A stretch of DNA of 64,000 nucleotides from NCBI GenBank assembly GCA_965202625.1, contig CBDBBI010000010.1, forward strand, positions 1-64,000. The letters are read 5' to 3'. Below, piece by piece: positions 33,556 to 59,413 of the stretch (position 1 is its first letter; each line of letters opens with the position of its first letter). The notes below the pieces were generated by a model, which saw only the letters and a list, made by a program, of their open reading frames with translations, was not told the origin of the DNA and searched no databases. This DNA is from a bacterium. Its GTDB lineage: Bacteria; UBA8248. A program made the position numbers and the translations under genes.

Positions 33556-34194
33556 CTAAAGCGCGCTGGCGACGTATTTTCTGTCCGAGAAGGCGAATTC
33601 GCGTATCCATCTGGTGAGTTCTCGATACAGGCGCGTTTGTGCGTCCTCCTCCGCGCTTGACGTATAAATGGGAATCCATCGCATGAGGTGCTCGTCCATG
33701 AACCGCGCGCTCAGGGAGAGTTTCTCCCGCGCGAGATCGGGCCGACCCTGGCTCCAGGCATCGGCCTCCTCAGCGGCGAGTTGGGCGAGGAATTCGAGCT
33801 CCACACTCAAATGGTCCATTGCTAGGACGCTCGGGTGCGCCAGGCCCCCGCTTCCGCGCCCGGGGTTGTAGCCGCACGCCCGATAGAAGTCGGCGACCGC
33901 ATCGGCCGCCTTCGAGTTCAGATGCCCGCTTTCGTCCACTAGGGCGGCTTCGTAGGGAGGGGAGGAGAGGAGAAATAGCTCCGTGAAATCCACCCTGAGC
34001 TTTCTGAGGGATTCTTCGGTATTGGCGAATTTTTCGGGAAACAGAAACGGATAGTTTTCTTGCAAGAATCCGGCGAGTTCGGCGTCCATCGGTTCGAGCA
34101 TCGCCTGTGCCTGCACCCGGTAGAGCTGGGCGCGAAGCCTTGCGCGTTCGGCGTATTCGGCGTTTGACGCGTGGCGCTTTCGGGAGAGACTCAT
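33556..34194 (-). CDS. TorD/DmsD family redox-enzyme maturation chaperone
   Basis: DFTELF, PPYEAA, FYRACG, DHLSVELEFL, FMDEHLMRW; ATG overlaps the Mo-subunit stop (ATGA). Confidence 0.9.
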   Translation of the reverse strand: MSLSRKRHASNAEYAERARLRAQLYRVQAQAMLEPMDAELAGFLQENYPFLFPEKFANTEESLRKLRVDFTELFLLSSPPYEAALVDESGHLNSKAADAVADFYRACGYNPGRGSGGLAHPSVLAMDHLSVELEFLAQLAAEEADAWSQGRPDLAREKLSLSARFMDEHLMRWIPIYTSSAEEDAQTRLYRELTRWIREFAFSDRKYVASAL

Positions 34195-37064
34195 TCTGGA
34201 ATGGTGTAGGCCTCGACCTGGGGTTTGTTCGGTCTCGCGAACCACAGCGGGCGTCGGAGCCCCTCGGGCCCGGGGGCGGGCTTCGTCATCTCGAGCCATT
34301 TCTTATAGTGTGCAAAGCTTTTTTTTGTGTCCACACTGATGTCCCCGTAGCGATCCGAGTCTCCCGCCTTCGTGACTCTTACCTTCTGGTGCCAGCAGTG
34401 CATTCCGCTCACCGGGTCGGGATTGACGGGGAAGGTGAGGTTTTGGTTCACGCCCACCTCGCGCCACCAGATGCGCTCCGTATCGGGATCATCACTGCTG
34501 AAGGGCTGGACGCCGTGAACTTGGCGCATGGCGTATTCCCCCTCGCCCTTCTCTTCCAGGCGGACGACGGCCGAGGCGATTTTAGGCGCGCCTTGCTCCT
34601 CACTCAGGCGCCAGCGCCCGAGGTGATGTGCCATGGCGACGATACCAGGCCGTAAGCCCTCCGTCACCCAACATCTTGTGACGAAACGCCCTATCTCGGT
34701 CTCTACCCTTGCGAGGTCACCCGTGCGCAGCCCGAGGCGCCTGGCGTCGTCGGTGTGCACCCAAAGGGGGTTGTTGTGGGTGATTTCATAAAGCCACTTC
34801 ACCGCCGAGCGCGTGTGGATGAGGGTGGCTAGGCGATAGTTCGGTAGCAGGTCGAATTCGTTGTTCTCCTTTGCCATGTCGCGCCAATAGACGTGGGTTT
34901 TCATGTATTTGGGTATCGTCTCGTCGCCCCAGTTCCAGTCCGCCATGGTCGGGCTGTAGAATTCGAGTTTCTTTGAGGGGGTGGCGAAGCCGACCCGTGG
35001 CCGGCCACGGCTCATGTTGCCGATGACGGTGCCGTCCTTTCGGATGGATCCTGCGGCGTCCACTTCGGCGTCGCGCATCGTCTCATCGGAGAGCTCCTCC
35101 ATGTGCGGCTCATATATGTTCTCCTGCACCGTGAATACGCCGTATTTCCGCATGTATTCCAGAGGCGCCAGCCCTTCCTTTCGCGCGGCTTCTGGAAGCC
35201 CCGGAACGCCGTTCTCGAACATCCACTGATAGTATTCGTTCACTGTGATTTTCTCGCCCGGCCTGTAGGGGCTCTCGAAATACCGCCTGATGCCGAGGGC
35301 GCCGTCTGGGTCTATCCGCCAGGAGAGTTCAATGTGGAGTTCGTCCTCCTCCCACACTTCCCCCGGATTCGCCTCGCGCGAATTTTCAAACGTTTCGCCC
35401 ATCTTCTCGCGCAGCACTCTCAGGACGGGCTGGCGAAAACCCACCCATTTCGTGGGATGCGTCTCCTGGCTTTGGTTGTCGTGTCGCTCCGTCGCGTTGC
35501 CCATAGGCAGAATGTAGTCGGCAAACCACGCCGTCTCGCTCCAGGTGGGGGTGAGCGCCACGTGACAGCCTATTTGCTCGTGGTTCTTCAGCATGTCTAC
35601 CCACATGAAGCCGTCTGGATTCGTCCACACCGGGTTATAGGCCCGCGTAAAATAGACGTCGACGCTGTGCCCCTTGTCCTTGATGAGATGGGGCATCAAG
35701 AAACTCATCTCGAAGAAGGCGAGGGGGTATTCCCTCGGAAAGAGGAGCTCGTTCCACTCCTTGGGCCCTGGAGCGGGGTTGGGGTGCTGGGGCACGAATT
35801 TGTGCGCGCTCGCCAGATGCGTGCCGCCCACGGCACCCACGGCGCCCGTCAGCGACGGCAGGAAGTGCAGACAGCGCGCCACCTGCCAGCCGTGGAGATT
35901 TCCGGTGGCGGCCGCGCGCCAGACATGGACGCAAAGACGGCTTCCGGCGCGGGCGACGACCTGCGCGACTTCCGCGATGAGGTCGGCGGAAACGCCCGTC
36001 TCCTCCGCCGCGTACGCGAATGTGAACTCCGCGTATTCTTCCTTCAGGCTAGCGATGAAATTGTCAAAACGCGCCTCCTCGCCCGGATGAGCGGCCTCCA
36101 TGTATTCTGCCCAGTTCATCCATTCGCTGACGAACTGCGCGTCAAACTGCCCGGTGTCCAGCAGGTAGCGCGCGATGGCGAGCAGAATTGCGCTCTCCGT
36201 TCCACTGTAGGCAGGCAGCCAGTAGTCTGCTTTCGCCGCCGTGTTGGAGAGTCTGGGATCTATCACGATGAGCTTCGCCCCGCTCGTCTGCGCCTCAATG
36301 ATCCGCTGGGCGGATGGATTGTAGTAATGGCCCGTGTCCAGGTGGCTGCTGATCAGCAAGATGGCGTCGGCGTTGGTGAAGTCGGGCGAAGGTCTGTCCG
36401 ATCCGTTCCACAGGAACTGTCCGATGCGGGCGGATGAGCTGCAAACGTTGGTGTGGCTGTTGTGGCCGTCCACGCCCCAGCCGGCGAGGGTCCGGAACAT
36501 GTAGCCGTCCTCGCCCGGCCGCCCCACGTGATAGATGACGCCGTTGCGCCGCCCTGCCTGAATGGCCTTCCGAATACGTTCGGCGATGTCGTCGAGCGCC
36601 TCATCCCAGCTCACGCGCTCCCATTTGCCCTCGCCGCGCTCGCCCACACGCTTGAGGGGATGGAAGATGCGGTCGGGGTCATATACCTGGTTGAGCGTCA
36701 CCCATCCCTTCGCGCAGTTGCGCCCGCGCGAGGCGGGGTGGAGTGGGTTTCCCTCGATTTTCCTGATCTTCATGTCGTCCTTGTCAACGTAGGCTAAAAG
36801 CCCGCAACCCGCCTCGCAGTTGAAGCAAAGGGTAGGAACCAGGGCGTAGTTTCTCGCTACTTTCTGCGGCCATTTCGCGCTCTCGTATTCCGTCCAGTCG
36901 TCCCACTTTTCCGGACTCGGGTAGGAGGCGAGCGCCCCGTCCATGTTCGTATAGTTCAGCTGGCCCGCAGGGGCCGCCGGCGGCGCCTTGGCCAGAAGGT
37001 CGGGACGACCTAGGGAGGCGACGTCGCGCGCCCCCTTGCCGACCTGGAGGTGGGTTATGCTCAT
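34191..37064 (-). CDS. Molybdopterin (Mo/W-bisPGD) oxidoreductase catalytic subunit, no Tat signal
   Basis: CFNCEAGC...CAKG [4Fe-4S] motif, PLKRVGERGEGKW..VSWDEALD, HNSHTNVCSSSAR, IDPRLSNTA, SETAWFADYILP, C-terminal molydop-binding domain. Confidence 0.93.
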   Translation of the reverse strand: MSITHLQVGKGARDVASLGRPDLLAKAPPAAPAGQLNYTNMDGALASYPSPEKWDDWTEYESAKWPQKVARNYALVPTLCFNCEAGCGLLAYVDKDDMKIRKIEGNPLHPASRGRNCAKGWVTLNQVYDPDRIFHPLKRVGERGEGKWERVSWDEALDDIAERIRKAIQAGRRNGVIYHVGRPGEDGYMFRTLAGWGVDGHNSHTNVCSSSARIGQFLWNGSDRPSPDFTNADAILLISSHLDTGHYYNPSAQRIIEAQTSGAKLIVIDPRLSNTAAKADYWLPAYSGTESAILLAIARYLLDTGQFDAQFVSEWMNWAEYMEAAHPGEEARFDNFIASLKEEYAEFTFAYAAEETGVSADLIAEVAQVVARAGSRLCVHVWRAAATGNLHGWQVARCLHFLPSLTGAVGAVGGTHLASAHKFVPQHPNPAPGPKEWNELLFPREYPLAFFEMSFLMPHLIKDKGHSVDVYFTRAYNPVWTNPDGFMWVDMLKNHEQIGCHVALTPTWSETAWFADYILPMGNATERHDNQSQETHPTKWVGFRQPVLRVLREKMGETFENSREANPGEVWEEDELHIELSWRIDPDGALGIRRYFESPYRPGEKITVNEYYQWMFENGVPGLPEAARKEGLAPLEYMRKYGVFTVQENIYEPHMEELSDETMRDAEVDAAGSIRKDGTVIGNMSRGRPRVGFATPSKKLEFYSPTMADWNWGDETIPKYMKTHVYWRDMAKENNEFDLLPNYRLATLIHTRSAVKWLYEITHNNPLWVHTDDARRLGLRTGDLARVETEIGRFVTRCWVTEGLRPGIVAMAHHLGRWRLSEEQGAPKIASAVVRLEEKGEGEYAMRQVHGVQPFSSDDPDTERIWWREVGVNQNLTFPVNPDPVSGMHCWHQKVRVTKAGDSDRYGDISVDTKKSFAHYKKWLEMTKPAPGPEGLRRPLWFARPNKPQVEAYTIPE

Positions 37065-37082
37065 ACGCTTGAAACTCCTGAA

Positions 37083-38603
37083 TTACGAAAGAGGGACGGC
37101 CTGTCCGGCCTTGACCCATATTTTGTCCCAAAGGCAGGCGCCCGTCATGGCTATGACGCCGGCCAGCATCGCGCTGTATCCTCCAAAGCCCCACACCCAA
37201 AGAACGAAGAGAGGAATGAGACATCCTACGACGATCGCCCCGCCCCAGAAATCGTTCTTGAAAGCACCGCTTGTCAGCAGGTGAATCGCCCGTTCATGCG
37301 CGACCGATCCGAAACGATGCGCCAAGGTCGAGAACGCGAGAATGAGCAGGTGCAGAAAAATGAGTATGACGAGCAGCGCGCCCAGAATGTCCAGAACCGC
37401 TTCCTGCTCTTCAATGGGAAAGAGCGTTGCGAAAAGGAGCATGACGGCGACGCCTTTGAGGCCCGACTGCACGCCGATGTCGAGAGTGTTCTCGCTCCCT
37501 TTCCACAGGTCGCGCGCCGACGCCTGGGCGAAGAAAAAGCCGGTGTAGAGCGACGCGAGCGCGCCCGTGACGATGGTGGGCCACAGGATGACGTCCATGA
37601 AGCCCGTCGTGCCCACCATCGCGCCTACTACCCAGAGAAAGGTGAGGAGTCCGTCCAGGGCGATGAACCATGTCCCCCACGCCATCCAGCTGCCCCAGTT
37701 CGAGCGGAGCATGATGTAGTAGAATCGCTCGGGCCGCTTCAGGTCGGTGATGAGAAGTCCCCCCGTGATGGCCAGGAGTATTCCGCTCAGGGCGGGCATC
37801 CAGAAGGAGATCAGCCAGCTTTTGAAGCCGAACGCCCAGAGAAAGAGGCTGATGAGCAAGAGGCCCGTGCTCACTCCCTTGGTCATCAGGTAGGTGATGA
37901 TTTTCGAGTCCCAGGGAATCTCGTGGAAAGTGTCGTATACGGTGCGGCTCTCCCCCGGTTTGTTCTCCCACTCAGGCACGACGTCCTCTTTCGTCACGTC
38001 CATCTCGCCTTGTTTGTAGATGCCCGACTGCCCCGCCTCTGTGGGGTCCAGAAGCTGGCGGCTACCCTCCAGATAATAGATGTTGGGCGAGGTGTTGTAT
38101 TCAGGCTTTCGCACGTGGAAGGGGTGTTGGGTGGTGAGTCGGATAATTTTGGAGTTCGCATCCTCGATGTCGCCGAACACGCGGCACTGTGTGGGGCAGA
38201 CCACTACGCAGGCGGGCTCGAGTCCTACTTCAAGGCGATTCGCGCAGAAATTGCACTTCTCGGCGGTCATCGTGTTGGGGTCGATGAAGAGCTGATCGTA
38301 GGGGCAGGCCGCGATGCAGGATTTGCACCCGATGCACCAGTCCGCGTCGAGGTCCACGATGCCGTCGCTGCGCCTGAAAAGCGCCTTCGTCGGGCAAATG
38401 TTCTGGCACGGGGCGTCGTCGCACTGGTTGCACAGGACGGGCAGAAATTCTCGCTTCGTGTTTGGAAAGGCGCCTTTCTCCACTTCTTTCACCCAGCATC
38501 GCCAAACGCCGATGGGGATGTCGTGTTCCGATTTGCACGCGATTGTGCAAGCATGGCATCCGATGCAGGATTCGAGGTCAATTGCCATGGCGTATTTGGG
38601 CAT
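37083..38603 (-). CDS. Fusion of a 4x[4Fe-4S] (DmsB/PsrB-like) domain and an NrfD/PsrC membrane anchor
   Basis: Four Cys groups (CIGCHACTIAC; CNQCDDAPCQNICP; CIGCKSCIAACP; CNFC..PACVVVCP), then about 8 TM helices with DLKRPERF and SWMAWG NrfD motifs. Confidence 0.92.
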   Translation of the reverse strand: MPKYAMAIDLESCIGCHACTIACKSEHDIPIGVWRCWVKEVEKGAFPNTKREFLPVLCNQCDDAPCQNICPTKALFRRSDGIVDLDADWCIGCKSCIAACPYDQLFIDPNTMTAEKCNFCANRLEVGLEPACVVVCPTQCRVFGDIEDANSKIIRLTTQHPFHVRKPEYNTSPNIYYLEGSRQLLDPTEAGQSGIYKQGEMDVTKEDVVPEWENKPGESRTVYDTFHEIPWDSKIITYLMTKGVSTGLLLISLFLWAFGFKSWLISFWMPALSGILLAITGGLLITDLKRPERFYYIMLRSNWGSWMAWGTWFIALDGLLTFLWVVGAMVGTTGFMDVILWPTIVTGALASLYTGFFFAQASARDLWKGSENTLDIGVQSGLKGVAVMLLFATLFPIEEQEAVLDILGALLVILIFLHLLILAFSTLAHRFGSVAHERAIHLLTSGAFKNDFWGGAIVVGCLIPLFVLWVWGFGGYSAMLAGVIAMTGACLWDKIWVKAGQAVPLS

Positions 38604-38763
38604 GAAAAATCCTCAACTGTGATGAAGCGTGTCTCTCATAGGGTGATTTTAACAGTTCATTACTATCGCTTTGCGGCGCGCGTGTCAATTCAGGCGGGGC
38701 GCCTTGGGTTTTCACGTTCTCGCGTGGTCCGAACGTTTCAGGAAGCCGGAGGAGAGGTGAGGG

Positions 38764-54918: not shown

Positions 54919-56511
54919 ATGAAAACAGCGTCGCCTGTTGAATTGAAGGAGTTGATGAAAAGCGGCGTCGCGCACGCGGTTCTTGATGTGCGCGACCCGA
55001 TGGAGTTTCATGAAAAGCAGATTTTCTGGACGACGAACGCCCCGCGCGGCGCCATCGAATTTTTGGCCTCGCGCCTTGTCCCCGTGAAGGCGACGCCGGT
55101 AGTTTGCCTGGACGAGGGAGGTCCCAGAGCCGGGCGCGTCGGTGCCCTTCTGGAGGAAGGAGGCTATGCGGACGTCCGGGTGCTGGATGGCGGATTGCGC
55201 GCGTGGGAGGCCCAGGGCTTTGTGACGGTCTCCGGCACCAACCTGCCGAGCAAGGATTTTGGCGAGCGGATTCACGTGGAGAACGACGTGCCGGAGATCA
55301 CCGCCATAGCGCTTTACGCGCTGATCGAGAGCGATACGCCCCCGCGCATATTCGACACGAGGACGGAGGCGGAATTCGAGCGCTTTTGCATTCCCACGGG
55401 GCGGAGCCTGCCCGGAGGCGAGCTTATCCTCCACGCCTGGGACTTGAACCAGGACAAGGAGACTCCGCTCGTCATCAACTGCGCGGGCCGCACCCGGAGC
55501 ATCATCGGGACACGGGCGCTTCACCGGCTCGGCGTGACGCACGCTCGCGCGCTGAAAAACGGAGGCATGGGCTTCATGCTGGAGGGCTTGCGGCTTGAGA
55601 AGGGAAAACCGAGTGAGGTCCCGACACCCTCTGAGAGGAGCCGCGCCCACGCAGAGGTGCTGGGGGTACGGGTGGCGGAGGAGGAGGGAATCCCCTTCGT
55701 GTCGGTTCCGGAGTTGATCCGCATGCAAGAGAGGTCGGAGAGCGAGACGGCGTATCTCCTTGACGTGCGCTTGGCGCCCGAGTTTGAGGCGGGCCACGTT
55801 CCGGGCGCGATCTCCATCCCCGGCGGACAGGCCGCGCAGCGCACGGACGAGGCGATAGCGGTGCGCTCCGCGCGAGTGGTAACCTATTGCGACAAGAATG
55901 CGCGCGGCGTCATGGCGGCTTATTGGCTGCGCCAGATGGGGCTCGACGTCAGCGTGCTGCGCGGAGGGTTCGAGGCGTGGCTGGAGGCGGGAGGGGCGAT
56001 AGAGAAAGAAGACGCCGCGTCCGCCGGAGAAGGCCCGGGCGAGGCGCAAGATGTTCTCCTCCTGACGGAGGCGCGGAAGCGGACCCGCGCCTACGCTCTC
56101 CAGGAGGCGCAGGCGGGAGCGAGCGACGCGATTCTGGACGTGGACCTGAGCGCTTCGTATGAGGGGGGACATCTGGCGGGCGCCGCCTGGGTCGCCAGGG
56201 GGTGGCTTGAGGAGCAGGCGTCTGCGCAAGTAGGCGACAAGAACGCGGCGGTGATGCTCGTCTGCGAGGATGGACGCAAATCCGCTTTGAGCGCGTTGAC
56301 GCTTCAAAGGCTCGGATACGCGAACGCGGGCTACCTCAAAGGCGGCAAGGGCGCCTGGCGAGCGGCGGGCCTTTCTCTACAAACGGGGTGCGCGGGCACA
56401 GCGGAGAAGCCAAAGGACGTTCAGCGCAAGCCATACGACATCGGTCGAGGCGCGATGGAGGATTATCTCGCATGGGAGGAAGATTTGGGGAGGAAATACG
56501 CGCGAGAATAA
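54919..56511 (+). CDS. Four-domain rhodanese-like sulfurtransferase
   Basis: Four repeats beginning LDVR/FDTR/LDVR/LDVD and ending L.GG..AW; NCAGRTRSIIG active-site loop in domain 2; C-terminal YLAWE. Confidence 0.9.
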   Translation: MKTASPVELKELMKSGVAHAVLDVRDPMEFHEKQIFWTTNAPRGAIEFLASRLVPVKATPVVCLDEGGPRAGRVGALLEEGGYADVRVLDGGLRAWEAQGFVTVSGTNLPSKDFGERIHVENDVPEITAIALYALIESDTPPRIFDTRTEAEFERFCIPTGRSLPGGELILHAWDLNQDKETPLVINCAGRTRSIIGTRALHRLGVTHARALKNGGMGFMLEGLRLEKGKPSEVPTPSERSRAHAEVLGVRVAEEEGIPFVSVPELIRMQERSESETAYLLDVRLAPEFEAGHVPGAISIPGGQAAQRTDEAIAVRSARVVTYCDKNARGVMAAYWLRQMGLDVSVLRGGFEAWLEAGGAIEKEDAASAGEGPGEAQDVLLLTEARKRTRAYALQEAQAGASDAILDVDLSASYEGGHLAGAAWVARGWLEEQASAQVGDKNAAVMLVCEDGRKSALSALTLQRLGYANAGYLKGGKGAWRAAGLSLQTGCAGTAEKPKDVQRKPYDIGRGAMEDYLAWEEDLGRKYARE

Positions 56512-57130: not shown

Positions 57131-59413
57131 TCAGCTTTTCTCCGCCTCCACGCGGTAGCTGTTGAAGGTGGCGTTTTCGTATTCCGACAGCGCGTCGCCA
57201 GTGATGTGATTGGCGGCGCCGTGCTCGGGTAGCCCGCCGGCGGGGACGTGCACGACCCCCCGGCGGATCCTCGCGCTCACCCTGGCCTCGAATACGGACT
57301 CGCCAAAGTCGTTTTTCAGACGCACCCGATCGCCGCTCATCACGCCTCGGACGGCGGCGTCCTCCGGGTGTAGGGTGGCGACGTTCCACCCGTGGCGTAA
57401 CAGCTTCGTCGCGTTGTTGAAGGTGGAACTCGCCCGAAAATAGGTTTTTGGCGTGATGAGGTGGAGGGGATAGCGTGCGTTTTCGCCCGGGGCGGCCTCC
57501 TCGGGCGAAAAATACGTGGGCGTGCGCTGCGCGAGTTCCTCGAAATAGATTTGCGCGCGCCTGTGAGGAGTGGCGAGCTCCCAATGCGGTACGCCTTCGG
57601 GAACCTCCAGCACGATCTGACCCTCTGCCTCCAGTTTGTCAAGTGTGACGTTCTTGAACCAGGGGAAGCGCGCGTCCACTCTCGCTGCCTCAAGGAGCTC
57701 CTCTATCCACTCCCTGGATGATTTCCAGGGGAAGCGCGCGCCATAGCCCATCTTCTCCGCCAAGCGGCAGACGATCTCAAAATCGTCCAGGGATTCTCCG
57801 CGCGGCGGCATGACTCCGGGCGTATAGAGGAGAACGTGCCTTGACCGCATCTCGGGAATCAGGTGATAGAAGGTGCCGCCCGTCTCCAGCCCCCCGGTGA
57901 TCGCGCAGCGTTCTAGCCAGGTGGAGGCAGGCAGAACCACGTCCGCGCATTTCGCCGTCGGCGTCATGAAAACGTCCACCACCGCGCAAAAGTCCAGAGA
58001 GCGCAGGGCGCGCTCGGTTTTGCGCGCGTCTCCTGCCTGGCCCACCGGGTTGCCCCACATCACCAGCGCGGCGTTCACGGGGCCGCCGTAGGAGTCCGGA
58101 TGGAGGATGGCCTCCCCAATCCGCCCTGCAGGGATGGTGCGCTTGACGGGATTGGGCACGGCCCATCGCTCCGTCATCACCTCCTTGAGGCCGGTTCCGT
58201 TTGCCTGAGGTGAGGAGAACCCCGCGCCTTGCGCCCCATGCCGCAGGACGCCGCCGAAGCCGCCCGTCATCAGGTTCAGGATGTGCAGCGCGCGAACAGC
58301 CTGCTCTCCATGAATGGCGCGCTGGTAGGAGCCGTAATAGACGACGACTTTCCCTTTCCGCATCGCGCGGGCGAGGTCTCGTACGTGCTGTTCCGGGACT
58401 CCGCATTCTTCCGCCGCGCGTGCGGGCGTCCATGGATCCGCGGCGTCCCTGAGACAATCGAGCGCGGTCCGGCATCGCGCGCCCTCCACCCGAAAGGTGC
58501 CGCTCAAGGCCGGTTGCGCGGCGGAGTCGAATGGTCGCGCCGAGGCGGTGCTCTCATCCCAGACGAGCGGCGCGCCGTCTGCCGTCCTGACGAACCGGCC
58601 GTTGTCCGCATCGACCAGAAACGCGGCGTTCGTCCTCTCTCGCAGGAAGGTCTCGTCAACGACCCCTTCGGAGAGAAGGAGCCTCAAAACGCCCAACGCC
58701 AGTGCCGCGTCCGTGGACGGGCGAATCGGCACGTGGACGTCGGCGAAGCGCTCCGCCGTGCGCGTCCGCATGGGATCGACCACGATGAAGCGTGTCCCCG
58801 CTCTCTTGGCGTCCTGAAGGGACTGAAGCAGGCCACGGTATCCCGTCTCCACCGGATTGTTTCCCCAAAGGACTATCCACTCGCAGTCCTCGTTCGGCTT
58901 GTTGCGCACCTGCCAATGGCCGAATACATCGTCGCTCGCGCCCAGAAAGGCTTTCCAGCAAAGGCTGCCGCGCAGGTATGGCTGCACGGCACCCCCCCAG
59001 AGGTTCAAAAGCCGCATGATGGTGGCGGGCTCGGCGTCCCGCCCTCCGGGCAGGGTGTGCTGGGCGGAATAGTGATACATCATGACGGATTCGTTTCCGC
59101 CCTTTTCCTTGGCCGCCTCCAGCCCTTGGGCGACCATCTCCAACGCCTCGTCCCAGCTCGTGCGCTCGAAGCGATTCGCTCCGCCTGGCCCCGCTCCCTT
59201 TTTCCCCACGCGCTTCATCGGGTGGAGAAGCCTGTCGGGATGGAGGTATCTCTCTGGTATCTGAAATCCCTTGATACAGGGCTTGATGCGCATTCTGGGG
59301 TTCGCCCTGAACGAGATGATAGCCCCTTGGTCGGTCTCGACCTCGAAGCTGCACGGGTAATTCCCGCAGTGCGGGGAGCAGACGGTGTGGGCTTTCCTGG
59401 GAGCGTCCGGCAT
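57131..59413 (-). CDS. Stand-alone molybdopterin oxidoreductase, no Tat signal
   Basis: CSPHCGNYPC...CIKG, DRLLHPMKR, SWDEALE, WGNNP, VDPMRT.TA, IRPSTD.AL, DVFMTPTA..ADVVLPA, LHPEDA..RG. Confidence 0.9.
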   Translation of the reverse strand: MPDAPRKAHTVCSPHCGNYPCSFEVETDQGAIISFRANPRMRIKPCIKGFQIPERYLHPDRLLHPMKRVGKKGAGPGGANRFERTSWDEALEMVAQGLEAAKEKGGNESVMMYHYSAQHTLPGGRDAEPATIMRLLNLWGGAVQPYLRGSLCWKAFLGASDDVFGHWQVRNKPNEDCEWIVLWGNNPVETGYRGLLQSLQDAKRAGTRFIVVDPMRTRTAERFADVHVPIRPSTDAALALGVLRLLLSEGVVDETFLRERTNAAFLVDADNGRFVRTADGAPLVWDESTASARPFDSAAQPALSGTFRVEGARCRTALDCLRDAADPWTPARAAEECGVPEQHVRDLARAMRKGKVVVYYGSYQRAIHGEQAVRALHILNLMTGGFGGVLRHGAQGAGFSSPQANGTGLKEVMTERWAVPNPVKRTIPAGRIGEAILHPDSYGGPVNAALVMWGNPVGQAGDARKTERALRSLDFCAVVDVFMTPTAKCADVVLPASTWLERCAITGGLETGGTFYHLIPEMRSRHVLLYTPGVMPPRGESLDDFEIVCRLAEKMGYGARFPWKSSREWIEELLEAARVDARFPWFKNVTLDKLEAEGQIVLEVPEGVPHWELATPHRRAQIYFEELAQRTPTYFSPEEAAPGENARYPLHLITPKTYFRASSTFNNATKLLRHGWNVATLHPEDAAVRGVMSGDRVRLKNDFGESVFEARVSARIRRGVVHVPAGGLPEHGAANHITGDALSEYENATFNSYRVEAEKS

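Follow-up and report, generated by a model that had tools for sequence, protein, structure and literature searches.

What does a membrane-bound molybdoenzyme do when its redox subunits carry no export signal, and does such an enzyme represent a new type? The question is raised by an operon at positions 33,556 to 38,603 of the 64,000-nucleotide stretch analysed here (the window), which is positions 1 to 64,000 of contig CBDBBI010000010.1 in GenBank assembly GCA_965202625.1, from a bacterium of the GTDB lineage UBA8248. A first-pass annotation, made from the letters of the window, had described three co-oriented and tightly packed genes: a fusion of a four-[4Fe-4S] ferredoxin with an NrfD-type anchor (subunit BC), a 957-aa molybdenum subunit (A), and a TorD-type chaperone. 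It had taken them for an undescribed arrangement from an uncharacterised clade. Reading frames and Pfam matches confirm the three genes. The novelty does not stand, since the operon has the usual layout, already described in print, of a family that is found very widely. With a probability of roughly 0.6, judged from sequence and by analogy, it belongs to the PSRLC3 or ‘psrBC-psrA’ type, the fused-anchor branch of the SoeABC-like enzymes of the literature, and would oxidise sulfite.

Wright et al. (2013; PMC3906813) describe psrBC fusions upstream of psrA genes that lack a twin-arginine translocation (Tat) leader, with green sulfur bacteria, Marine Group A, Marine Group II, Haladaptatus, and Caldilinea as carriers. 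Citing Frigaard and Bryant (2008), they relate the proposal that in green sulfur bacteria the cytoplasmic complex oxidises Dsr-derived sulfite. A figure legend in PMC9324843 gives PSRLC3 as an inferred sulfite oxidase, and the review PMC8232776 calls the SoeABC genes ‘universally present’ among purple as well as green sulfur bacteria. The supposedly uncharacterised clade was thus in print (PMC3906813, PMC9324843), with sulfite oxidation proposed between 2008 and 2013 and reviews treating the enzyme as SoeABC.

The window operon shares with this published type a Tat-less subunit A, a fused B–C gene, and the order BC then A. The likeness extends to sequence, in a comparison that recognised green sulfur bacteria by their FMO gene only and included no PSRLC3 sequence labelled as such by its authors. 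An FMO gene occurs in 98 of 401 genomes sampled from the phylum of a Saprospiraceae locus, and 20 of the 40 FMO-bearing genomes searched have a copy resembling A. These copies are 54–57% identical to A; 19 are intact, at 56–57% identity in frames of 955–1026 aa, and one is split in two. Of 12 such loci fetched, every one has NrfD-coding DNA upstream and 11 have ferredoxin-coding DNA there. In each of the 12 the N-terminus reads MSYKHKP...PPPEKWDxWVEYDSKSWP...CFNCEAGCG, and none has a twin-arginine pair (RR). The green-sulfur-bacterial copies therefore match the window’s A in N-terminal motif and cluster site, and they share its clade in the tree described below. The window lineage differs in adding a TorD-type chaperone gene, of which the green-sulfur-bacterial loci showed no counterpart in their 1.5-kb flanks, and in having an N-terminal tail of its own. 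Its genome also differs from the Dsr-linked type in having no Dsr system (dsrA below cut-off).

The three genes all lie on the minus strand. Subunit BC (37,083..38,603; 506 aa) was identified by Pfam and NCBIfam matches, cysteine positions, and hydropathy. Residues 1–190 form a PsrB/SoeB-like ferredoxin domain with the cysteines for four [4Fe-4S] clusters; these are 16 residues in four cluster motifs between positions 13 and 136, and Fer4_11 matches residues 52–145 at 85.3 bits. A hydrophilic linker follows (residues 191–242), and no helix separates the ferredoxin domain from the anchor. Residues 243–492 contain eight hydrophobic segments, as in the NrfD/PsrC-like quinone module, and NrfD (PF03916) matches residues 224–489 at 58.6 bits against a cut-off of 25.8. 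The quinone coupling suggested at first pass is thereby made probable, with a match above the gathering score and about eight predicted helices. BC is the sole NrfD match in the 3.09-Mb genome.

Subunit A (34,191..37,064; 957 aa, 108.4 kDa) is the catalytic subunit, of the type that binds molybdenum or tungsten in a bis(pyranopterin guanine dinucleotide) cofactor, and was identified by Pfam, NCBIfam, and structure matches. It contains the Pfam domains Molybdop_Fe4S4, Molybdopterin, and Molydop_binding. The family motif YPSPEKWDDWTEYESAKWP precedes its FS0 [4Fe-4S] site, C80-x2-C83-x3-C87-x29-C117. In HMMER alignments with solved structures, Cys208 in HNSHTNVCSSSAR falls in the cysteine column of PsrA (2VPW) and ArrA (6CZ7). 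The Cys-ligated, Psr-like molybdenum centre that had been predicted is accordingly probable, with Cys208 as the probable ligand. The nearest solved structure is Thermus PsrA (2VPW; E 8.5e-39 over residues 73–549 of A). No curated NCBIfam model is reached by A, which scores 200.3 bits against a cut-off of 694 with the PhsA model (NF012032), 183.8 against 777.7 with DmsA/YnfE (TIGR02166), 121 against 1600 with ArrA (NF041714), 99.5 against 1750 with TtrA (NF011567), and only 21.6 with narG.

The third gene (33,556..34,194; 212 aa) encodes an assembly chaperone of the TorD/NarJ type, which matches Nitrate_red_del (PF02613) at 65.5 bits against a gathering cut-off of 22.2 and stays below the NCBIfam chaperone subfamily cut-offs (42.3 against 152.3 bits). 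Its longest frame spans 33,556–34,299. A start at codon 36 (position 34,194) gives an ATGA overlap with the TGA stop of A, and in 13 of 13 same-genus loci the chaperone match begins at residue 1 of the 212-aa form, abutting the end of A. Because of this overlap and these match limits, M36 is most likely the real start, correcting the long frame. The other junction is similarly tight: 18 nucleotides separate the BC stop from the A start, which is preceded by an AGGAG Shine–Dalgarno sequence.

How widespread is this enzyme? All 8000 scored candidates were significant relatives of A, and the best 120 are 62–89% identical to it. The databases name them just ‘molybdopterin-dependent oxidoreductase’ (Nitrospinota, Vicinamibacterales, Gemmatimonadaceae, and others), and the protein atlas likewise held only generic names. 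In a full HMMER pass, 14431 proteins had E ≤ 0.001, and for 1125 the value was E ≤ 1e-30. With one genome per species, 412 of at least 589 pattern-matching stretches encode relatives. The survey of loci used the best 80 of these, which are 54–78% identical to A and come from Acidobacteriota, Binatia, Rokubacteria, Gemmatimonadota, Chloroflexota, Actinomycetota, Planctomycetota, Bacteroidota, KSB1, Myxococcota, Spirochaetia, and Dormiibacterota. In a sample of 401 genomes of one class, 159 gave matches, mostly 54–63% identical, three genomes having only weak ones.

Fusion of B and C is the norm in this family, since a fused ferredoxin–NrfD frame lies upstream of the A gene in 70 of the best 80 loci, and contig ends truncate eight of the remaining ten. 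Put differently, the fused gene precedes the catalytic gene in 70 of the 72 loci with enough upstream DNA. The arrangement and the absent leaders, which had been read as undescribed, are thus the rule here. All 30 loci fetched from the class sample are of the fused type, and tblastn searches of plasmids (9 and 8 records) found only fused-type or other layouts. Two loci, L055 (a metagenome-assembled genome, MAG, of an Acidimicrobiia family) and L088 (a Phycisphaerae MAG), are truly without the fused frame, having full 9-kb flanks and no ferredoxin or NrfD gene nearby. In seven others (L058, L065, L068, L069, L082, L085, and L091; Pyrinomonadaceae plus one Acidobacteriota locus), 0.6–3.3 kb with extra small open reading frames (ORFs) separate BC from A. 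Short ferredoxin proteins that appeared to be separate B subunits (P0287–P0367) were mostly rejected as frameshifted fused genes or fragments; the frameshifted calls are recognisable by Arg/Ala-rich out-of-frame tails, and many lie on long contigs.

The phylogeny of the molybdenum subunit, proposed at first pass as the way to place the enzyme, was estimated from 47 rows and 953 columns, one row being a partial protein (IQ-TREE quick search, LG+G4, with Shimodaira–Hasegawa-like approximate likelihood ratio (SH-aLRT) support only). A branch with SH-aLRT 100 unites 41 rows, apart from an outgroup that is only ‘Psr/Phs-like’, as none of its 10 representatives exceeds an NCBIfam cut-off. The clade holds the window’s A together with green-sulfur-bacterial, Rhodococcus, Thermomicrobium, and haloarchaeal (Natrinema) copies and those of other phyla; the fused types of Actinobacteria and Chloroflexota are likewise within it. 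The window’s A groups with its own genus, a Nitrospinota MAG, and an Acidobacteriota locus. The comparison, among rows that include no named canonical SoeA, thus supports the grouping with green-sulfur-bacterial enzymes and the separation from Psr/Phs-like proteins. The nearest named relative, the Nitrospinota MAG locus L014 (78% identity), is embedded in DNA of 37% G+C, compared with about 60% in the window.

The N-terminal extension and the CFNCEAGC site, which had been called distinctive, are family hallmarks common to green sulfur bacteria. All intact Tat-less members aligned have the motif (Y/F)PPxExWDDWxEY..WP, and the block DGHNSHTN(V/I)CS is present in the window’s A and in all family rows of the 47-row alignment that are intact and Tat-less; two deviant Tat-less representatives (P0125 and P0130) have no such block. 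Upstream of the conserved motif, the first 25–60 residues fall into lineage-specific types (loci L014–L093 and L126–L154). Green sulfur bacteria and Bacteroidota have a helix of the form MSYKHKP..IE..AEKL.LIPDLH, Gemmatimonadota and Pyrinomonadaceae have RVSAAR.E.EARGETFYPGPSR.HLAAFPPKER, and the window’s genus has MS.SHLQVGKGARD.ASLGRPDLL. A TorD-like gene mainly follows A genes with the latter two tail types, which hints that the tail may be the chaperone’s handle.

If the type is known, what is its substrate? Genes beside the operon in other genomes make a sulfur oxyanion, suggested at first pass as plausible, a likely one. On plasmid pRHL3 of Rhodococcus jostii RHA1 the order is DsrE-like, TusA, fused BC, A, and Mrp/NBP35, and the surroundings include three genes for metallo-β-lactamase (MBL)-fold hydrolases, two for ArsR regulators, DUF202 genes, and a thioredoxin gene. 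On the megaplasmid of Thermomicrobium roseum, a gene for a CsoR-type regulator directly precedes the BC–A pair. Neighbours were tallied at 70 loci, taking the two nearest ORFs on each side and any between BC and A (273 ORFs). The commonest families were Nitrate_red_del (15), Rhodanese (11), Sulfate_transp (10), and Lactamase_B (8), followed by TauE (5), CoA_trans (5), DUF445 (5), DrsE_2 (4), and HTH_5 (4). Rhodococcus proteins used as tblastn queries found MBL-type genes at 15–16, DsrE at 7, and TusA at 8 of the best 80 loci, within 9 kb. Sulfite oxidation in the cytoplasm, giving sulfate, fits these SulP (sulfate permease), TauE-family (sulfite exporter), rhodanese, DsrE, TusA, and persulfide-dioxygenase-like neighbours. 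An Mrp/NBP35 ATPase gene follows A, in place of one for a TorD-type chaperone, in RHA1 (L009:11799-12968) and in Natrinema halophilum (L013:10906-12066); tblastn found none in the best 80 genome loci.

Several observations weigh against sulfite oxidation as the role of the window’s operon. The tallied ORFs were chosen by an ad hoc heuristic of third-position G+C and length, cut at 420 aa, and the tally had no background control. The likeness of A to characterised SoeA is drawn from description, not from direct sequence comparison. The literature searched gave no assay or mutant of a fused-type member, although such data may exist. Within its own genome, the operon is flanked by housekeeping genes: those for a CDP-alcohol phosphatidyltransferase, an LPG-synthase-like protein, an epimerase, an aldo-keto reductase, an M24 peptidase, a SpoU methylase, QueA, and an aminotransferase. 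Models for dsrA, soxB, aprA, and xsc have no match above the curated cut-off in the whole genome; the best dsrA match reaches 19.7 bits against 392.85, and sHdr was not searched for. No cytoplasmic source of sulfite was identified, there being only weak MBL hits in a search that did not properly cover sHdr, persulfide dioxygenase, or organosulfur breakdown. Finally, three SUOX-fold proteins encoded in the genome are possible alternative oxidisers of sulfite. Twelve gene places for thiamine-diphosphate enzymes (G000:C10, 14 matches) were also recorded, all below the sulfoacetaldehyde acetyltransferase cut-off (best 356 against 676 bits).

Accordingly, other substrates have to be considered. It is doubtful, though worth holding in mind, that in a heterotroph-like lineage such as this one the strictly conserved operon encodes something other than a sulfite dehydrogenase, namely a quinone-linked cytoplasmic enzyme acting on carrier-bound sulfur, an oxyanion derived from organosulfur compounds, or a non-sulfur oxyanion. 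The lack of above-cut-off Dsr, Sox, or Apr matches, the tail on A, and the NarJ-like chaperone would suit this reading. If it is right, the whole fused family has perhaps been mis-assigned by analogy with SoeABC.

A quinol-driven reductase of cytoplasmic inorganic sulfur (polysulfide or sulfur, tetrathionate, or thiosulfate) is unlikely. Reduction was the first interpretation of the bacterial ‘Sre’ enzyme of Aquifex, and PMC10100899 places bacterial SreA and SoeA in one cytoplasmic lineage. The best solved or curated matches of A are reductases too (PsrA 2VPW at E 8.5e-39, ArrA, and the PhsA model at 200 bits), and rhodanese, TusA, and DsrE neighbours handle sulfane sulfur. However, all reductase models remain far below cut-off, the SulP and TauE neighbours point to the handling of sulfate and sulfite, and many carriers belong to aerobic soil or marine heterotroph lineages. 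The proposals for this type in the papers cited above are, moreover, oxidative.

The specific idea that the enzyme takes persulfide or thiosulfonate sulfur from TusA or DsrE-like proteins, not free sulfite, is quite improbable. It draws on the DsrE-like and TusA genes directly upstream of the pair in Rhodococcus, on DrsE_2 (4), DsrE (2), and TusA (2) among 137 adjoining ORFs, and on the 7 and 8 tblastn loci for DsrE and TusA. Yet most loci, including the window, have no such neighbour, and tblastn with the Rhodococcus DsrE and TusA queries found nothing in the window’s genome. There is an equally slim chance that in the window’s lineage the substrate is a cytoplasmic compound without sulfur, whether another oxyanion or an organic molecule. 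The operon indeed has no sulfur genes beside it, the genome showed no lithotrophic sulfur pathway, and this lineage combines an N-terminal tail of its own with a dedicated chaperone. Against this, the window’s A shares the active-site block DGHNSHTN(V/I)CS with all intact Tat-less rows, A is 56–64% identical to copies in other phyla, and it nests inside the family in the tree. Cytoplasmic sulfite remains the preferred substrate.

On which side of the membrane would sulfite be oxidised? There is no RR in residues 1–80 of A or residues 1–40 of BC, whose first cluster cysteine is already at residue 13. Stop-to-stop frames are only 963 aa (A) and 509 aa (BC), 6 and 3 codons longer than the called starts allow, so that a Tat leader from an upstream start is impossible. 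The ferredoxin domain must lie on the same side as the N-terminus of the anchor, as no helix intervenes. Loops rich in lysine and arginine face the cytoplasm (the positive-inside rule), and BC has 12 such residues in loops predicted inside against 1 outside; the inside count exceeds the outside count in 71 of 71 aligned fused proteins, with medians of 9 and 1. By this rule, the ferredoxin domain and the docked A are predicted to face the cytoplasm. The first-pass view of Tat-less redox subunits in a cytoplasm-facing enzyme is thus borne out by the missing leaders and the loop charges. A periplasm-facing enzyme like Psr, exported either because it hitch-hikes on a Tat substrate or because its start was mis-called, is highly improbable: Tat-bearing relatives with the same N-terminal motif do sit inside the clade, on long branches, but the missing RR, the few upstream codons, the covalent joining of the ferredoxin domain to the anchor with no extra helix, and loop charges that put this domain inside in all 71 proteins speak against it.

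Those relatives (P0129, P0157, and P0142; 915–1123 aa) have clear twin-arginine leaders and keep the YPPFE.W motif, and their placement in the 41-row clade is unsure. On a plasmid of Sulfurovum mangrovi (L011:5844-12131), such a Tat-type gene, unannotated there, stands second in the series NrfD, A, TorD, FeS. Forms that are exported and forms that face inward would thus share one clade.

In the sulfite-oxidising reading, a mechanism can be sketched by analogy with Psr and SoeABC. Sulfite would be oxidised to sulfate at the Cys-ligated molybdenum centre of A, and the two electrons would travel by way of FS0 and the four ferredoxin-domain clusters to a quinone that the NrfD module binds close to the cytoplasmic face. 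Because both half-reactions would take place on the cytoplasmic side, the enzyme itself would not separate charge by a redox loop unless the NrfD module pumps. Up to the insertion of the cofactor, the TorD-type protein would keep hold of the signal-less apo-A, perhaps gripping it at the N-terminal tail as NarJ does NarG.

The genome itself is 3.09 Mb and 99.7% complete, with one NrfD protein and three Fe4S4-type molybdenum subunits, and with no narG match above cut-off. The operon is present in 42 of 51 genomes sampled from the phylum. Within the genus, 20 of 22 other genomes have it, with 89–92% identity of A (across 19 genomes); the BC–A–chaperone arrangement is identical in 13 of 13 same-genus loci fetched. 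In four runs of one marine study, 40 contigs from RNA libraries are at least 99% alike and together lie on all three genes, bins without such cover carrying no information. Such libraries may contain DNA, so the contigs hint at transcription only weakly. Upstream of the operon, a divergent intergenic region of 160 nucleotides (38,604..38,763), with GAGGA before the ATG, adjoins the plus-strand CDP-alcohol phosphatidyltransferase gene and is the presumed promoter region; a consensus scan found 2 promoter-like sites against a shuffled mean of 1.3, and neither promoter nor terminator sites exceeded those in shuffled sequence.

Two further genes of the window were recorded. About 16 kb from the operon, and not adjacent to it, the plus strand encodes at 54,919–56,511 a possible sulfurtransferase of 530 aa, in which Pfam recognises four rhodanese domains (E 1.2e-53). 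A second molybdopterin oxidoreductase gene (57,131–59,413, minus strand) encodes 760 aa with Molybdopterin and Molydop_binding domains and no N-terminal Fe4S4 domain, and the product looks like the soluble BisC/TorA-like type.

For the window, the outcome is mainly a corrected annotation. For the family, its broader interest is that the fused inward-facing enzyme ranks with the most frequent membrane molybdoenzymes of soil, marine, and sponge-associated phyla, with a prevalence in the samples of 159 of 401 genomes in one class, 42 of 51 in the window’s phylum, and 20 of 40 in green sulfur bacteria. Its generic annotation is still ‘molybdopterin-dependent oxidoreductase’ and, by the literature searched, it has apparently never been assayed. 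If it truly is the main cytoplasmic route from sulfite to sulfate, surveys for three-gene SoeABC, SorAB, or Apr/Sat may miss that route. Cultured carriers of the fused type include R. jostii RHA1 and T. roseum.

Three known systems frame this conclusion. NarGHI is a cytoplasm-facing, unexported molybdoenzyme whose chaperone NarJ, a member of the TorD family, acts on a signal-less catalytic subunit. Its anchor NarI is a haem b protein, its molybdenum ligand is an aspartate, and it belongs to another clade. The window’s enzyme therefore resembles NarGHI/NarJ in the lack of export and in its TorD-family chaperone, and differs from it in anchor, ligand, and clade. Psr is Tat-exported and periplasm-facing, with B and C separate. 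The window has the same three modules and the same cysteine ligand column as Thermus thermophilus PsrABC (PDB 2VPW-2VPZ) and PhsABC. Its A is about 190 residues longer than PsrA and lies across a branch with SH-aLRT 100 from Psr/Phs-like proteins.

SoeABC is the system with which the preferred reading aligns the window’s operon. SoeA of Allochromatium vinosum is about 109 kDa, near the 108.4 kDa of the window’s A, and soeA, soeB, and soeC are three separate genes in that order. Here, in contrast, B and C form one polypeptide whose gene precedes that of A. According to Watanabe et al. (2019; PMC6397845), SoeABC co-occurs with a cytoplasmic, sulfite-forming Dsr or sHdr pathway. As relayed by papers that cite the work on A. 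vinosum (Dahl et al. 2013) and Aquifex aeolicus (Boughanemi et al. 2020), SoeABC is, like the enzyme predicted here, a membrane-bound molybdoenzyme with cytoplasmic A and B parts held by an NrfD/PsrC-type anchor.

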